A stretch of 64,000 bases of DNA from Escherichia phage vB-Eco-KMB38: sequence record OR525701.1; one strand, given 5' to 3'. Under the pieces are notes generated by a model. That model saw nothing but the letters and a program-made list of their open reading frames with translations. It searched no databases and was not told the origin of the DNA. Shown here piece by piece: positions 9,135 to 64,000 of this stretch; the stretch's first letter is position 1, and each line of letters begins with the position of its first letter. The translations under genes and the position numbers were made by a program.

Positions 9135-9364
9135 TGGACGATTTAATTCAAGCTATTAAATCAAACGACCTCGTTGCTACTCGAAAGTTTTTTGAAAGTG
9201 CAATGGCAGAAAAAACGGTTCGTTTGATTGAAGCGCGCAAAGCAGAAATCGCTTCTCAATTTTTGATTGAAGGCGAAGAACCTGAAGAAGAAAAGAAAGC
9301 TTCGGAAGACGACGCTGATGAAGGCGATGACGACGAAGACGAAGATGATGAGGACGATGAATAA
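9134..9364 (+). CDS. 67: prohead core protein gp67
   Basis: 76 aa with acidic C-terminal tail; ATG overlaps the gp20 stop. Confidence 0.8.
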
Positions 9365-14602: not shown

Positions 14603-15601
14603 TTATGATACTAATTCAATCCATGCAGGACGCAGAACATCTTGCACCATTCGGACTAATTCTTTCTTAACAAGATTCGGATTATCAGATGATGCTAATA
14701 CAATACCTTCACGAGAAGTTTCTTCCAGAATATCTTGAACAGTCAGTCCCATCACTTTGCCAAAATCTTTTGGCGTTACAACCCCAATCTTAGAAATCAC
14801 ATTATTAACACGATTTAATGTAACATAACAAGCTAGAACATCAAGCAAGTTTTTGTCAATTTCGGTTAATGGAACCTGAGTTTTAACAGGTTTATCAGAC
14901 TTTTTCTTTTCACTGAATTTAGAGTTCTTGCACTTAATAGCTACACGAGTACCGTTTGGCAGCCATTTAGGGAAACAAGGCTTCAGAACATAACCTTCTG
15001 CAGTATTATTACCAATAACATTAGCATCAAATACACAATTATTTGCTTCGACAAGGTCTTCTGACGCAGTAGCATTATAAGCGGCTAAGACAGAATCAAG
15101 GTCGTTTGGAATCATGATAAGAGCATCAAATGTTCCGCGACCAAGCATCGGGGCCATTTTAAAACCGAATTCATTACAGAAATCTTGCATTTCATAATCG
15201 GTCAAATACGTATTATCACCACTTTCTGTATTGATAAGGATATCGAACACATAAAAATCTTTTTCACCGTAGTCAACACCTTTCTGGATTCCACCACCGG
15301 CGAATTCACCGAATACTTGATACGATACGGCTCGAGCTGTGTACATGAATTCCTGAACAGCTTTAATAGCTTTATCATACTTCTTGAGTACGATTTCATA
15401 ACCATAAAAATCTTCTGCTGGAAGAATAGGGCCTGTGCGCTTGGCGCATGTGACGTTGTCACGTTCAATTATTAACGAGAAGTTGGTCCCATGGATTTTC
15501 TCACGTGCTACCCAAACACCAGTAGTCAAACCATTAGTGTAGAGTTTTTCAATAAACTTAGAGTTGTAGTGGTTTTCAAGACTGCTGTATTTCTTAAACA
15601 T
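14603..15601 (-). CDS. rnlB: RNA ligase 2 (RnlB)
   Basis: 332 aa; N-terminus [13 protein letters not shown]... with ligase lysine motif EKIHGTN; matches T4 Rnl2 as recalled. Confidence 0.92.
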
Positions 15602-16263: not shown

Positions 16264-17394
16264 TTATGGATATGTATAGATGATACCAGTTTCTAAAGCA
16301 GTTTTATGGATGATATATCCATTACGCGATTCTTGAACATCAACTTCTGGATAATCTTTCATCATCTTCTGGAGAGTGTAACGATGCAGGTAGTATTTAC
16401 TATCTGGGTCGTCAATTTTCCAATCTTTACCTTCTTCAGTCATTTTTTGGATTTCATCCATAACCCACCAACCGCACCAGATGTAAGCTGAAGTACGATG
16501 TGGAAGAGGATGAACATAAGGTAGTTCACCTTCTGGTTCCGGAGCAACTTTATCAGTTACCTGAACTTGACCCGTCGTTTTAACTGTTTTACTATCATAA
16601 TCGGTTGCAGTAACAACTGCAGTAACTTCAATAGTTTGACTTCCAACAGATGAGGTATCAACTGTATACACATTAGTCGATCCTTCTACAGGAGAAGAAT
16701 CTTTCTTCCATGAATAAGTAATTTGTGCCGATTCTGGTGCACCAGTCACATTAGCAGTAAATGTAGCCGAAGCATCTTGTTGAACACTAATAGAAGGAGG
16801 AGTCAATGTAACCTGTGGATTCATTGTCTTCTTATTAACAGTCAGTGATACTTCATTAGAAGTAACTTCTTTTGCATTATAATCATCAGCAGTTACTTGG
16901 GCTACGCATTTAATTCTTTTGACTCCATTTGTAGTTGGAGTATAGTTAAATGTAGAGTTAGTTTCTCCACTAATTTGAGAATCGTCAACATACCATTGAT
17001 ACGTAGCAGATGCACCTGATGGCTGCGAAGCCAAAGCAGCAGTAAATTTAACAGCTGTTCCAATTACTCCTGCTGGAGGACTATTGGGAGTTACGGCTAA
17101 TGTAGTCGTCTGGGTTTTGTTTTTGACTGTAATAGTTGTACTAATTTCAGCTGTTTCAGCTTCACTGTCAGGAACTGGATTTGTTGCAACTACTTTAATA
17201 GTTTTTTGTCCAGCAGGACCCTTTAATACATAACTAAAAGTTGCTGACGTTTCTTCCTGTGGAGCATCGTCTACAGTCCAAGCATATGTAATAGGTCCGT
17301 CTCCAGTTTGACCGCTGGGCGTAGCAGTAAACTGCTTAGTCTGATCTATAACTCCGGTAGGCGTTTTAGGAGTTATATCAACTGTAAAAGCCAT
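16264..17394 (-). CDS. hoc: highly immunogenic outer capsid protein Hoc (Ig-like domains)
   Basis: 376 aa; translation closely matches T4 Hoc as recalled, including C-terminal ...HKTALETGIIYTYP. Confidence 0.93.
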   Translation of the reverse strand: MAFTVDITPKTPTGVIDQTKQFTATPSGQTGDGPITYAWTVDDAPQEETSATFSYVLKGPAGQKTIKVVATNPVPDSEAETAEISTTITVKNKTQTTTLAVTPNSPPAGVIGTAVKFTAALASQPSGASATYQWYVDDSQISGETNSTFNYTPTTNGVKRIKCVAQVTADDYNAKEVTSNEVSLTVNKKTMNPQVTLTPPSISVQQDASATFTANVTGAPESAQITYSWKKDSSPVEGSTNVYTVDTSSVGSQTIEVTAVVTATDYDSKTVKTTGQVQVTDKVAPEPEGELPYVHPLPHRTSAYIWCGWWVMDEIQKMTEEGKDWKIDDPDSKYYLHRYTLQKMMKDYPEVDVQESRNGYIIHKTALETGIIYTYP

Positions 17395-17403
17395 AAGTTA
17401 TCC

Positions 17404-18072
17404 TTATTTTAATGTTACGAAAGAAGAATTACGAGTTTCGCGAATTAGAACTGATCCATCGCGATTAATATAATAAATTAAGCTAAATAATGTTTGGTGT
17501 GCCGACGCATGTTCAAAACTGGTTGGGCGAGATTTCCAATCAGGTGTTTCGGCTATCCATTGATAAATCCACCAAGGAACAGTAACATACCCTGGGCCTT
17601 TGCCTAATTTAATGAGTGTAGGACTAAAATTTTCAGGCAGAACAAATTTTACTTCTTTATTTACTTCTGGCTCAGGCTCTTTTTCAGATTCAACAACCTG
17701 AGTAATTGCTTCTTCAAATTTATCATGGTCGAATTCTATTTCTTGTTCGACAACTTCTAATACTTCAACTTGTTCTGCCGGAGAATCAAACAACAGAATA
17801 GCTTCTTCTTTAACTTCTTCGTTGGTGAAATTAACACCGTCCACATCATCTGCGGCAGTAATTAAATCGGTGATAGATAATCCATCAGTTTCAGGTAATG
17901 GTTCATTAGCCAGTGCGTTAAGAGCTTCTTCGATATCAATAACAATATTATCGAATGATTTTGTTTTCTTAACACTAATACCAAATTGTGCCGCATATTC
18001 AAACAGTTTAGCTTTGGCTTCCTTTTTATCAGAAAGAGCACGTAACTCTTCAATATAGTCTTTATCGATCAT
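17404..18072 (-). CDS. inh: prohead protease inhibitor Inh
   Basis: 222 aa ORF immediately downstream of hoc on the same strand; synteny with T4 inh. Confidence 0.8.
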   Translation of the reverse strand: MIDKDYIEELRALSDKKEAKAKLFEYAAQFGISVKKTKSFDNIVIDIEEALNALANEPLPETDGLSITDLITAADDVDGVNFTNEEVKEEAILLFDSPAEQVEVLEVVEQEIEFDHDKFEEAITQVVESEKEPEPEVNKEVKFVLPENFSPTLIKLGKGPGYVTVPWWIYQWIAETPDWKSRPTSFEHASAHQTLFSLIYYINRDGSVLIRETRNSSFVTLK

Positions 18073-18085
18073 GGTATTTCCTCAT

Positions 18086-18093
18086 TATAAATA
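18086..18093 (+). promoter_or_regulatory. late promoter TATAAATA upstream of the GIY-YIG HEG / uvsW
   Basis: Exact TATAAATA 29 nt upstream of the HEG ATG. Confidence 0.6.
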
Positions 18094-18121
18094 TAACTAT
18101 ATTTATTACATGGAAAAGAGT

Positions 18122-18853
18122 ATGTATCACTTTGTTTATGAGACCGTAAATTTAATTAATGGTAAAAAGTACATTGGCAAACATTCTACAGAAAATTTAA
18201 ATGATTCGTATCTAGGGTCAGGTGTTGCCTTAAATCGCGCTATCAAAAAATACGGAGAAGAATCATTTAAACGTTCAATAATTAAACAATTTGAAACTTC
18301 CGCTGAAGCTTTAGAATACGAAGCTCAGTTAGTAACAGAGGATTTGGTCAAATCTAACGAGTATTATAATATGCGCCAAGGCGGTGAAGGTGGAAGGTAT
18401 AAGTACACCGAAGCTGATAAGACTAAAATGTCTAATAGTGCTAAAGAACGAATAAAGAGGCTTGGTCATAATCTTTTAGGAAAACACAGATCGGAAGAAA
18501 CAAAAAGAAAACTATCTGAAACAAATAAACGTCGATACTCTGAAGACCCAACATGCCACGGGCGGTATGGTACAGGAAAGCCAAAGATTGATAAAATTAA
18601 AGGTCCTAAAAATCCTACAACTCTAAATAAAATTTGTGTTAACAACGGTAAAGAAAACAGATTTATATCAGCCGAGGACCCGATGCCTGAAGGATTTGTA
18701 AAAGGAATGGTCCAACTTAATAGAAAATCTAGAAAGGGCTGTGAAGTAAAACCTACGACCACCGGCAGAATATGGGTAAATAACGGGGCTATAAATAAAT
18801 TAGTAAATCCGTTATCCATCCCAGATGGATATGTTAAAGGCCGTTTAAGGTAA
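18122..18853 (+). mobile_element. free-standing GIY-YIG homing endonuclease (segE-like)
   Basis: N-terminal GIY-YIG-type motif YHFVYETVNLINGKKYIGKH...R...E; C-terminal repeated xNNGxxN DNA-binding motifs; located between inh and uvsW where T4 carries segE; start chosen at the ATG behind AAGAG (track ORF starts at 18071). Confidence 0.8.
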
Positions 18854-52841: not shown

Positions 52842-53495
52842 TTAATACTTACATGATTTTATTGTTTCTATGAACAATTTCTTAGCAGCATTTCCATCGA
52901 TTTGAAGTATTTTTCGATATGCCTTTAATTTGGTAGAATAATTTTGCCAGACTAAATTGTCAGTAAGTTCATCATGCTTATCTATAATATTCAAGAATGA
53001 ATCCAACAACAAGAAGGTTTCAAACGAAATTATATTGCTTTGTAGCAATTTAAATATGTAGCTCGACTGAACTTTATTATTATAATCAAATATCTCTTGA
53101 AGCGCACTAACTTCCACTTTCTTACTGAAATAGTAGATGTTACGTACATCTTCAGCAAACGTCTCCTTGGCTTGTTTGAGACGTCCAATATATTCCCTAT
53201 AGAAAACTAATGCATCAGCGTCTGAGATCTCACCAATCCATGCATCTTGGTTAGCAACTAAGTTACTTATGAATATCAAGGTGAGTTCCTTCAATTTATA
53301 TTTCTCTGCTAGTTTTTCAAAGAAATATTTATCTCGGCGTTTTTGATACGCATTATCCGAAACACGCATGCACCAGTTATATTTGATTACGTCATACCGA
53401 CCATTAAAATGTTGTTTGCACATCAAGTATAGTTTGTATACCGATTTTCCATTAATATAACGTTCTCCGTCAGGAGGCATGCGTATTTTAATCAT
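52842..53495 (-). CDS. 59: helicase loader gp59
   Basis: 217 aa, same as T4 gp59; close match as recalled. Confidence 0.93.
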   Translation of the reverse strand: MIKIRMPPDGERYINGKSVYKLYLMCKQHFNGRYDVIKYNWCMRVSDNAYQKRRDKYFFEKLAEKYKLKELTLIFISNLVANQDAWIGEISDADALVFYREYIGRLKQAKETFAEDVRNIYYFSKKVEVSALQEIFDYNNKVQSSYIFKLLQSNIISFETFLLLDSFLNIIDKHDELTDNLVWQNYSTKLKAYRKILQIDGNAAKKLFIETIKSCKY

Positions 53496-53830
53496 AATAA
53501 GAAATCTAACGTATTAGTTTTTTCACCACGAGCAACTGATGGGCGAAGCATGTTTTCGTCAATTGCTTCGCTTGTAATTTTTTCAACAATTCCTGTAGGA
53601 ATAAATTTAGCAAATTGTGTTTCTGGAATAGAATTTTCTTCCAAGAAAGCAGTTGTTGCTTCTAAATAAGTCATACCAAATTGCTCAACCATGGATTCGA
53701 TAATGAATCCGTTTTCTTGACGGTCAAGCAATTTAGCGATATCATCTTTATCATGTTTTACTGCTAATTCTTGTTCAGATAAACCGGTCTCATCAACCGG
53801 TTTAATATCACTTAGTGAAAACTGTGTCAT
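53492..53830 (-). CDS. 33: late transcription co-activator gp33
   Basis: 112 aa, same as T4 gp33. Confidence 0.9.
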   Translation of the reverse strand: MTQFSLSDIKPVDETGLSEQELAVKHDKDDIAKLLDRQENGFIIESMVEQFGMTYLEATTAFLEENSIPETQFAKFIPTGIVEKITSEAIDENMLRPSVARGEKTNTLDFLL

Positions 53831-60148: not shown

Positions 60149-60805
60149 ATGGCCGATTTAAAAGCCGGAAGTACAGTTGGTGGTTCCGTCATATGGCATC
60201 AAGGCAATTTTCCTTTAATGCCAGCTGGCGATGACATCCTATATAAAACATTTAAATTATACACCGAATATAACAAGCCAAAAGCGGCTGATAACGATTT
60301 CGTATCTAAAGCAAATGGCGGGACATATCTCAAAAAGGTAATCTTTAACGAAGGTATTGCAGTCAAAACAGCAGATGACCAAACGAATGGTATTTTTTCT
60401 GGTGGTGGTGACGCCGCGACATTCGACCAAACAAACATGGATATTGTTTCGTGGTATGGTGTTGGGTTTAAATCATCTCAAGGTACAGGTGAAAGAACTG
60501 TTGTAATTGATACTCGCACCGGTAATATAAGTTCTAAAGGCGTTATTGAAGCATCTCAATTCAGAGCCACAACGTTAGCACCTTTAAATAATTACGACCT
60601 TACTCGCAAAGATTATGTTGATAGTCAAATAAATACAGTTAATGCTAATGCAAACAGTCGTGTACTCCGTTCAGGAGATACGATGACCGGCGCGCTAACA
60701 GCCCCAAACTTTTTCTCACAGAATCCTGCATCTCAACCCTCGCATGTTCCACGATTTGACCAAATTGTTATTAAGGATTCTGTTCAAGATTTCGGCTATT
60801 ATTAA
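60149..60805 (+). CDS. 36: long tail fiber distal subunit connector gp36
   Basis: 218 aa; late promoter at 60115-60122; synteny. Confidence 0.88.
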
Positions 60806-60813
60806 GAGGACTT

Positions 60814-63800
60814 ATGGCTACTTTAAAACAAATACAATTTAAAAGAAGCAAAACTGCAGGAGCACGTCCTGCCGCTTCAGTATTAGCCGAAGGTGAATTG
60901 GCTATAAACTTAAAAGACCGTGTACTTTTTACTAAAGATGACCAAGGAAATATTATTGATCTGGGTTTTGCTAAAGGTGGTAGTATTGACGGGAATGTTA
61001 TTCATACAGGCAATTATAACCAAACTGGCGATTATACTTTAAATGGCGAATGTTATTCATACAGGCAATTATAACCAAACTGGCGATTATACTTTAAATG
61101 GCACCTTCACTCAAATTGGCGATTTCAATCTCAAGGGTATTGCTCGCGTAACTCGTGATATTATTGCTGCGGGTCAGATAATGACCCATGGTGGCGAACT
61201 TATTACAAAAAGTTCAGGTACAGCACATGTTCGTTTTCATGATTTAGCTGACCGTGAACGTGGAATCATTTTTTCTCCTGCTAATGATGGATTAACTACA
61301 CAAGTTCTTAATATTAGAGTTCAAGATTACAAAGCTGGTTCAGAAAGCACTTTCGCTTTTAATGGAAATGGTTTGTTTTCTTCACCAGAAGTTTTTGGGT
61401 GGAAATCTGTATCAACTCCGGTAATTTATACCAATAAAGTTATCACCAATAAAAAAGTTAAAGATGATTATGACATCTATTCGATGGCAGACAATGTCCC
61501 ATTGTCTGAAAGCACTACTGCTATTAATCATCTACGTGTCATGCGCAATGCAGTCGGTTCTGGTATTTTCCATGAAGTTAAAGATAATGATGGAATAACT
61601 TGGTATAGTGGAGATGGATTAGATGCTTATCTTTGGTCATTTACCTGGAGCGGCGGAATTAAATCAAGTCACTCAATTTCTATCGGTTTAACACCCGGTA
61701 ATAAAGATTATTCAATATTAGGACCATCTAGCATTGCTTTAGGAGATAATGACACCGGGTTTAAATGGCATCAGGATGGATATTTTTTTACGGTAAACAA
61801 CGGTACAAAAACTTTCCTTTCTGGTCCGGCGGAAACCACTAGCCTTAGAAAAATGGTTATGGGTTATTCTGTAAATGGTACTGATTTGACTACTCCTCCA
61901 ACTGAAAACTATGCTCTTGCTACTGTTGTGACATATCACGATAATAACGCGTTTGGAGATGGTCAGACTCTTTTGGGATATTATCAAGGCGGTAACTATC
62001 ATCATTATTTCCGCGGCAAGGGTACCACAAACATTAATACTCATGGCGGTTTGTTAGTTACTCCAGGTAATATTGATGTTGTTGGCGGTTCGGTTAATAT
62101 CGATGGTAGAAATAATGCTTCTACGCTGATGTTTAGAGGTAACACGACCGGAGCTAGTTCAGTTGATAATATGACAATTTCCGTGTGGGGTAACACGTTT
62201 ACTAATCCTAGTGTAGGTAATCGTAAAAACGTCATGGAAATTTCTGATGCAACTAGTTGGATGAGCTATATTCAAAGACTTACTACTGGTGAAGTAGAAA
62301 TGAACGTTAACGGTTCATTTGAATCATCTGGTGTTACTGCTGGAAATAGAGGAGTTCACACAACAGGCGAAATTTCATCTGGAGCAGTGAATGCTCTTCG
62401 TATTTGGAATGCAGATTATGGAGTCATTTTTAGACGTTCGGAAGGTAGTCTTCATATTATTCCAACTGCTTATGGCGAAGGCAAAGATGGCGATATCGGT
62501 CCACTTCGTCCGTTTAGTATGTCTTTAGATACAGGTAAGGTCGTTATTCCTGACCTAGATTTGAGTCATACAACTTTTGCTGAAAATGGTTTTATTAAAT
62601 TCGGTGGGCATGGTGCTGGTGCCGGTGGTTATGATATTCAATACGGCCAAGCAGCTCCTGTTTTCCAAGAAATTGATGATGACGCGGTAAGTAAATATTA
62701 TCCTATTGTTAAGCAGAAATTCTTACAAGGAAAAGCTGTTTGGTCTTTAGGTACTGAAATTAATTCCGGGACTTTTGTTTTACACCATCTTAAAGAAGAC
62801 GGGACCGGTGGTCATACCTCAAGATTTAATGCTGATGGTACAGTTAATTTCCCTGATAATGTCCTGGTTGGCGGTGGTGAAGCTGCTATTGCTCGAAATG
62901 GTAATATTTTCTCTGATATTTGGAAAGTATTTACATCTGCAGGCGACGTAACTAATATTCGCGATGCAATAGCTACTCGTGTTTCTAAAGAAGGCGACAA
63001 GATGACTGGCACTCTTTGGATTAATAAAGATGCTGCTGGAATAGTTCTTAATCCTCCTTTGGCCAGTGATTCATCATTTATTCGTTCTGATACGGCCGGG
63101 GCCAATAATTGGTATATTGGTAAAGGCGGTGCCGACAATGGTCTAGGTTTTTACAGTTATGTTACACAAGGCGGTGTATACATAACAACTAACGGTGAAA
63201 TATCGCTTTCTCCTCAAGGCCAAGGAACATTTAATTTTAATAGAGACCGCCTCCATATAAACGGTACACAATGGACCGCACACCAGGGTGGTGGTTGGGG
63301 AAATCAATGGAATCAAGAAGCACCGGTATTTGTAGATTTTGGTAATGTTGGTAATGATAGTTATTATCCTATTATTAAAGGAAAATCCGGTATTACTAAT
63401 GAAGGATACATATCTGGTGTAGATTTTGGTATGCGACGCATTACTAATACATGGGCACAAGGTATTATTCGTGTAGGTAATCAGGAAAACGGTTACGACC
63501 CACAAGCTGTATATGAATTCCATCATAACGGTACTTTTTATGCTCCAAGCTTACTTAAGAGCAGTAGAGTATCAGCTGGTGGTGGTGACCCTGCATGGGG
63601 CGGGCCGTGTATTGTACTTGGAGATAACGATACCGGTTTGCTTTGGGAAGCAGACGGTATTTTCAACGCATATGCAAACGGCCAAGGTGTGTTTAGTTTT
63701 AGACCTGGTTTAGCTCAGACATTCGGTGATGTTAACTTCCACTGTAATGCAGGTATGTATGTTCGTGATAACATTGATGTTAACGACGTTTATATTCGTT

Positions 63801-64000
63801 CTGATATTCGTTGTAAGTCGGAAATTAAGCTTATTAAGAACGCTCAAGAGAAATCTAAACTATTGGGCGGTTATACTTATCTGCTTAAAAACTCTGTTAC
63901 AGACGAAGTTAAACCGTCCGCAGGTTTAATTGCTCAGGAAGTTCAAGAAGTATTACCTGAACTTGTTTCTGAAGATAAAGAGACCGGACTGCTTCGTTTG
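60814..64000 (+). pseudogene. 37: long tail fiber distal subunit gp37, interrupted by a frameshifting 55-bp tandem duplication; 3' end lies outside window
   Basis: N-terminus [36 protein letters not shown]... matches T4 gp37 as recalled; frame stops at 61072-61074 after the duplicated copy; the +1 frame from 61103 is open to the window end and finishes with an S74-type chaperone-domain motif (SDIRCKSEIKLIKNAQEK...GLIAQEVQEVLPELVS). Confidence 0.7.
60993..61102 (+). repeat. perfect 55-bp tandem direct duplication (2 copies) inside gene 37
   Basis: 60993-61047 and 61048-61102 are both GAATGTTATTCATACAGGCAATTATAACCAAACTGGCGATTATACTTTAAATGGC. Confidence 0.95.

Follow-up and report, generated by a model that had tools for sequence, protein, structure and literature searches.

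The stretch of 64,000 nucleotides from Escherichia phage vB-Eco-KMB38 (sequence record OR525701.1), which was analysed over its whole length and is referred to as the window, carries a perfect tandem duplication of 55 bases within the long tail fibre gene 37. With a probability of roughly 0.87, the second copy does not belong to the genome of the phage but is a leftover overlap of a de Bruijn assembler operating at k = 55, which was not trimmed when sequence ends were joined. The duplication most likely does not represent a real biological feature, and as biology it is most likely without importance. Support for an artefact is provided by the exact anatomy of the duplication, the single-copy state of the relatives, the lack of any homology that could have driven the event and the otherwise clean assembly. 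The gp37 protein of the phage itself is almost certainly ordinary, intact and identical to that of the closely related Escherichia phage PTK.

In terms of data quality, the duplication is of modest weight, as 55 presumably spurious bases split an essential host-range gene into a stub of 86 amino acids and a remainder that cannot be annotated. A gene 37 split in this manner would mislead automated annotation, catalogues of receptor-binding proteins and the prediction of host range. Moreover, where a perfect tandem duplication of exactly 55, 77, 99 or 127 bases lies inside a sequence, it constitutes a simple sign of untrimmed-overlap errors, for which assemblies can be screened.

Anatomy of the duplication and the reading frame of gene 37

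The initial annotation had described an exact repeat of positions 60993-61047 at 61048-61102, and this description agrees with direct reading as well as with a script and with Tandem Repeats Finder, both of which give 55 identical bases out of 55; the latter reports for 60993-61102 a period of 55, 2.0 copies, 100% matches and a score of 220. The unit, as read in copy 1, is GAATGTTATTCATACAGGCAATTATAACCAAACTGGCGATTATACTTTAAATGGC, and across the copy-copy junction at 61047/61048 the sequence runs from ...ATACTTTAAATGGC directly into GAATGTTATTCATACAGG... On the left flank, G at 60992 is opposed to C at 61047, and on the right flank A at 61103 is opposed to G at 61048; the periodic run determined by the script comprises exactly 110 bases with zero extension on either side. 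A duplication of this kind is far beyond chance, and the 32-mer spanning the junction is expected 0.00 times in shuffled sequences. In addition, the 64-kb window contains no further perfect tandem duplication whose unit measures 15-600 bases, and related phages, of which about 334 kb were covered, gave none at all; across about 398 kb of the phage group to which the window belongs, it is thus the sole example.

Since 55 equals 1 modulo 3, an artefactual duplication would mimic a frameshift. The truncation after 86 codons at a TAA (61072-61074) and the open frame from 61103 up to the window end, both of which had been pointed out before, were each recovered, the latter extending over 966 codons without a stop (Table 1). 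Translation of the first frame would start at the native initiation codon of gene 37, which is preceded by a strong Shine-Dalgarno sequence, AAGAGGA. The resulting product of 86 amino acids has no entry in a public gene index (exact-product look-up) and no match in Pfam. The remainder of the gene, on the other hand, encodes a Gp34_trimer-like domain and a C-terminal Peptidase_S74 domain, the latter being an intramolecular chaperone. As a further observation on this protein architecture, close relatives possess a separate gp38 adhesin gene immediately downstream of gene 37, at a place that lies beyond the end of the window.

Table 1. Features surrounding the 55-base duplication, in positions of the window
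Feature	Position	Strand	Remarks
Gene 36, distal hinge connector	60149..60805	+	Intact, immediately upstream of gene 37; used as query for independent assemblies
Apparent truncated gene 37 ORF	60814..61074	+	79 native codons, 7 out-of-frame codons and TAA 61072-61074
Copy 1 of the 55-base unit	60993..61047	+	Native part of gene 37 that begins at base 3 of codon 60 and ends with codon 78
ATG at the junction	61043..61045	+	In frame with the gene 37 remainder (M-A-N61-V62...)
Copy 2 of the 55-base unit	61048..61102	+	Identical to copy 1; extra sequence, probably an untrimmed k = 55 contig-end overlap
Gene 37 remainder	61103..64000	+	966 open codons, runs off the window end

Gene 37 in PTK, AlbertHofmann and other relatives

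The window derives from a T4-type phage of the genus Mosigvirus; over 24 kb, it shares 99.8% identity with Escherichia phage PTK (MW512264) and 99.0% with phage AlbertHofmann (MZ501047). Over its entire length the window is collinear with positions 95559-159743 of PTK. In PTK as well as in AlbertHofmann, the ORF following gene 36 encodes the long tail fibre distal subunit gp37 with 1083 amino acids, which confirms the identification of the interrupted gene as gene 37 in the initial annotation, an assignment that records matching at 99-100% identity make unambiguous; in AlbertHofmann, the gene for the gp38 adhesin comes next.

Between 60500 and 61700, both relatives match the window at 100% identity over 1146 instead of 1201 bases. 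These sequences are thus 55 bases shorter and contain a single copy of the unit. When one copy is deleted from the window by a script, the encoded gp37 becomes identical to PTK gp37 at all 1044 of the 1044 amino acids whose codons lie inside the window, and at the nucleotide level only one synonymous difference in 3132 bases sets the restored gene apart from that of PTK. Judged by this comparison, the duplication is thus the sole lesion of gene 37, with no sign of decay downstream.

Moreover, gene 37 alone is frameshifted out of the 82 genes of PTK that have a counterpart in the window. When the 82 proteins of PTK were compared with every open frame that the window offers, coverage reached 98% or more for all but those of hoc, of a mobile ORF confined to PTK and of gene 37. 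Small insertions and deletions relative to PTK are either intergenic or locally compensated, and neither homopolymer errors nor random frameshift errors were seen in the window in the comparison with PTK. A noisy assembly, or sequencing error in general, was dismissed as the cause, given that the other genes compared with PTK are all free of frameshifts. On these grounds the window resembles a clean assembly of short reads in which a single structural oddity stands alone, and the lack of errors of the homopolymer type fits assembly of short reads by a de Bruijn method.

The two-copy form was absent from all collections that were searched. A 41-mer or 32-mer spanning the junction yielded zero matches in 50,697 phage records, in the plasmids of PLSDB and in complete E. 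coli genomes, and likewise zero matches in IMG/VR viral contigs, JGI metagenome contigs and GTDB genome contigs. The 55-mer as such is present in 100 phage records and occurs once per record in each of them (100/100). A record or contig bearing the 55-mer at both of its termini was found neither among these 100 phage records, where it lies in one place each, nor among viral contigs, which gave no exact match. Distinct contigs that encode exactly the gp36 or the gp34 of the window numbered 11 and stemmed from NCBI, ENA and Logan assemblies of sequencing runs. All of them (11/11) possess an uninterrupted gene 37 encoding 1071-1087 amino acids and are devoid of the tandem duplication, the best identity of any of these contigs to the window being 99.3%. 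Hence, no copy-number polymorphism among relatives was seen across the six collections, the 100 records and the 11 contigs.

Origin of the second copy

A de Bruijn assembler, such as SPAdes or metaSPAdes, leaves an overlap of k-mer length (k = 55) at both contig ends when the genome being assembled is circular or, like those of T4-type phages, circularly permuted. In the case of the window, the circle would have been broken by chance inside gene 37 and the contig ends would have been joined without trimming one of the two overlaps, where both the type of assembler and the untrimmed join are what we infer. Two routes may have led to this outcome: either the contig was opened again so that it begins near rIIA in the manner of T4, or the record was treated as circular and the window was cut across its ends. 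By either route, the two terminal copies would be converted into an internal perfect tandem duplication, while the actual phage would harbour a single copy and an intact gp37.

In the CheckV study, which covered 751,567 contigs whose termini carry direct repeats, the repeats at contig ends pile up at 55, 77 and 99 bp and are ascribed to assembler k-mers and a circular template broken at a random place (PMC8116208). Assembly of the T4-like phage 132 with SPAdes from 150-bp reads yielded a contig with 55-bp overlapping ends, one of which was trimmed before the contig was opened anew to line up with T4 (PMC8483715). By analogy, the procedure applied to phage 132, minus the trim, would give the exact structure encountered in the window. 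In line with this, common assembly problems named in the Phage Annotation Guide include circularisation and terminal repeats located mid-sequence, and the guide states that circularly permuted phage genomes assemble as apparent circles (PMC8785237).

The window shares several properties with the k-mer terminal overlaps left by SPAdes or metaSPAdes at k = 55, 77, 99 or 127. The two copies are 100% identical; the unit of 55 bases, without any extension, has the length of an odd k in standard use by assemblers (55, 77, 99 and 127 being examples); the template is of the circularly permuted T4 type, the closure of the window's own assembly presumably having occurred; and the break point is arbitrary and requires no homology. 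In addition, relatives lack the extra copy, and an intact gene is recovered once it is removed. Such overlaps reside at two contig ends, whereas the copies in the window adjoin each other internally, which calls for an additional step of joining or reopening that presumably took place. The orientation of the window is that of T4 and PTK, the latter starting at rIIA; this is consistent with a genome reopened after assembly, though only circumstantially. An assembly artefact had already been offered as an alternative in the initial annotation, and it is this alternative that is favoured here on account of the length of 55, which is an assembler k, the single copy in relatives and the intact gp37 obtained upon removal.

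A genuine and very recent tandem duplication, which would knock out gp37 and be reversible by recombination or slippage so as to yield an unstable null allele or an on/off switch, appears unlikely. T4 is proficient in recombination, and tandem duplications in T4 are known to segregate. T4-type phages produce tandem duplications, and recombination between repeats of 55 bases could remove one of the copies; moreover, both copies are present in the sequence as given, and the absence of decay in the downstream ORF is what would be expected of a recent event. Yet the sequence around the duplication offers little to a mutational origin. Slippage or unequal recombination requires homology between the end points, whereas microhomology at the end points of the duplication is zero, with the first base beyond each end being different. 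The N-terminal part of gp37 encoded by 60993-61150 (residues about 61-90) does exhibit an imperfect periodicity of 18 bases or 6 residues of the form x-x-x-x-x-G, presumably a short fibrous repeat, from which a repeat-driven event would be expected to measure 18, 36 or 54 bases and to remain in frame. In the single-copy sequence, self-identity amounts to 0.43 at lag 18, 0.37 at lag 36 and 0.37 at lag 54 and falls to the background value of 0.23 at lag 55; the 55-base unit is thus out of register with the native 6-residue repeat. For these reasons, slippage on the native 18-base repeat was rejected. The length of 55 could be a coincidence, but it coincides exactly with an assembler k-mer. Furthermore, the two-copy allele occurs in none of the six collections and is carried by no relative, and the roughly 398 kb of the phage group contain no other perfect tandem duplication.

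A real duplication of this kind would also have to be compatible with propagation of the phage. The long tail fibres of T4 make the first contact with the receptor, infectivity requires at least three of them per particle, and the gp36 trimer attaches to the N-terminal region of gp37 (PMC3004832). The long tail fibre genes encode indispensable components of the virion, and truncation of the gp38 adhesin in T6 abolishes adsorption and plaque formation (PMC3157838). A gp37-null phenotype should therefore be lethal for plaque formation (PMC3004832, PMC3157838), and a consensus genome that is null for gp37, with merely 79 native residues left, is implausible for a propagated phage. Adsorption heterogeneity in T4 stocks, for its part, has been traced to point mutations in gene 37 and not to frameshifts (PMC4281060). 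It is very unlikely that the duplication is real in the stock and serves as a recombination-reversible OFF switch of the distal fibre, giving rise to one-copy revertants and to heritable ON/OFF heterogeneity of adsorption. The suggestion of the initial annotation that the genome encodes a truncated distal fibre, possibly under a reversible on/off switch, thus finds no support: the allele is unique with respect to the collections searched, homology that could drive slippage is lacking, the length equals an assembler k and a gp37-null phage would hardly have been propagated.

Two known types of variation resemble the duplication in part. Phase-variable loci consist of short repeats in many copies and display copy-number polymorphism among isolates. 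As in such contingency loci, where slipped-strand events cause phase variation, a change in copy number in the window shifts the frame of a surface or receptor-binding protein; in contrast to them, the window contains two copies of a unique 55-base sequence, without polymorphism in relatives and without microhomology, repeats or a matching register at the end points. Duplications in T4 gene 37 that alter the host range, which Tetart and colleagues are said to have described in 1996, reportedly preserve the frame, affect the adhesin region at the C-terminus, originate between conserved motifs and leave the phages viable, with a wider host range. Like these, the duplication of the window is tandem and affects the gene for the distal tail fibre in a phage of the T4 type. 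However, the duplication in the window is neither in frame nor located in the C-terminal adhesin region; it spans codons 60-78 out of about 1083 and would leave the phage without the protein.

Technical origins other than an untrimmed k-mer overlap, namely a contig merge that kept both overlapping ends, an untrimmed circularisation overlap of long reads or a chimeric library molecule, have a very slight chance of being correct. They would leave the same signature, that is, an extra identical copy unique to the sequence of the window; nevertheless, overlaps of long reads tend to be far longer and are seldom free of errors, chimeric reads do not make it into the consensus, and exactly 55 bases is a length that specifically indicates a de Bruijn k-mer.

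Finally, the chance that the locus is functional as written, either by +1 ribosomal frameshifting within 61048-61072, yielding gp37 with an insertion of 18 residues, or by reinitiation at the junction ATG 61043, yielding a split gp37 composed of the 86-residue N-terminal piece and residues 61 to the end, is next to nil, since this ATG, albeit in frame with the remainder of gene 37 and situated 30 bases upstream of the stop codon that ends the first ORF, has no Shine-Dalgarno sequence in the 20 bases preceding it (AACTGGCGATTATACTTTAA), unlike the native start, since the nine sense codons inspected ahead of the stop (GGC GAA TGT TAT TCA TAC AGG CAA TTA TAA) contain no recognisable +1 shift site, since no relative has such an arrangement, all of them exhibiting a single uninterrupted ORF, and since the reinitiated product would lack residues 1-60 of gp37 and with them part of the region that binds gp36 (PMC3004832). 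Reinitiation and +1 frameshifting were both rejected, as the respective signals and their conservation are absent.

Further differences between the window and PTK

Apart from gene 37, several loci distinguish the window from PTK. At about 16826-17122 on the minus strand, within the hoc gene, alignments with PTK overlap, and the PTK Hoc protein is covered to 79% at 83% identity. This variable gene for the outer capsid protein Hoc thus differs substantially between two otherwise near-identical phages.

At 18071-18853 on the plus strand, just upstream of uvsW, an ORF of 260 amino acids encodes a GIY-YIG/SegE-like homing endonuclease domain. The segment of roughly 745 bases with this ORF is wholly absent from PTK in spite of the identity of 99.8%, and it is an ordinary presence/absence polymorphism of mobile endonucleases in T4-type phages. 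Conversely, at about 53492-53496, between the genes for gp59 and gp33, the window is without an ORF of 227 amino acids that PTK carries at 148610-149293. This ORF probably encodes another homing endonuclease, because its equivalent at a further locus (L006) matches the I-TevI DNA-binding domain family.

In the gene for RNA ligase 2 (minus strand), five small deletions relative to PTK, amounting to 9 bases in total, are clustered within the 16 bases at 15329-15344; they are net in frame and hence reflect a locally divergent patch and not a frameshift. Moreover, a small ORF following the portal gene contains, at 9284-9360, an acidic array of a 21-base repeat (GACGACGATGACGAAGACGAT, 2.5 copies) and, relative to PTK, a GAA insertion or deletion of 3 bases.
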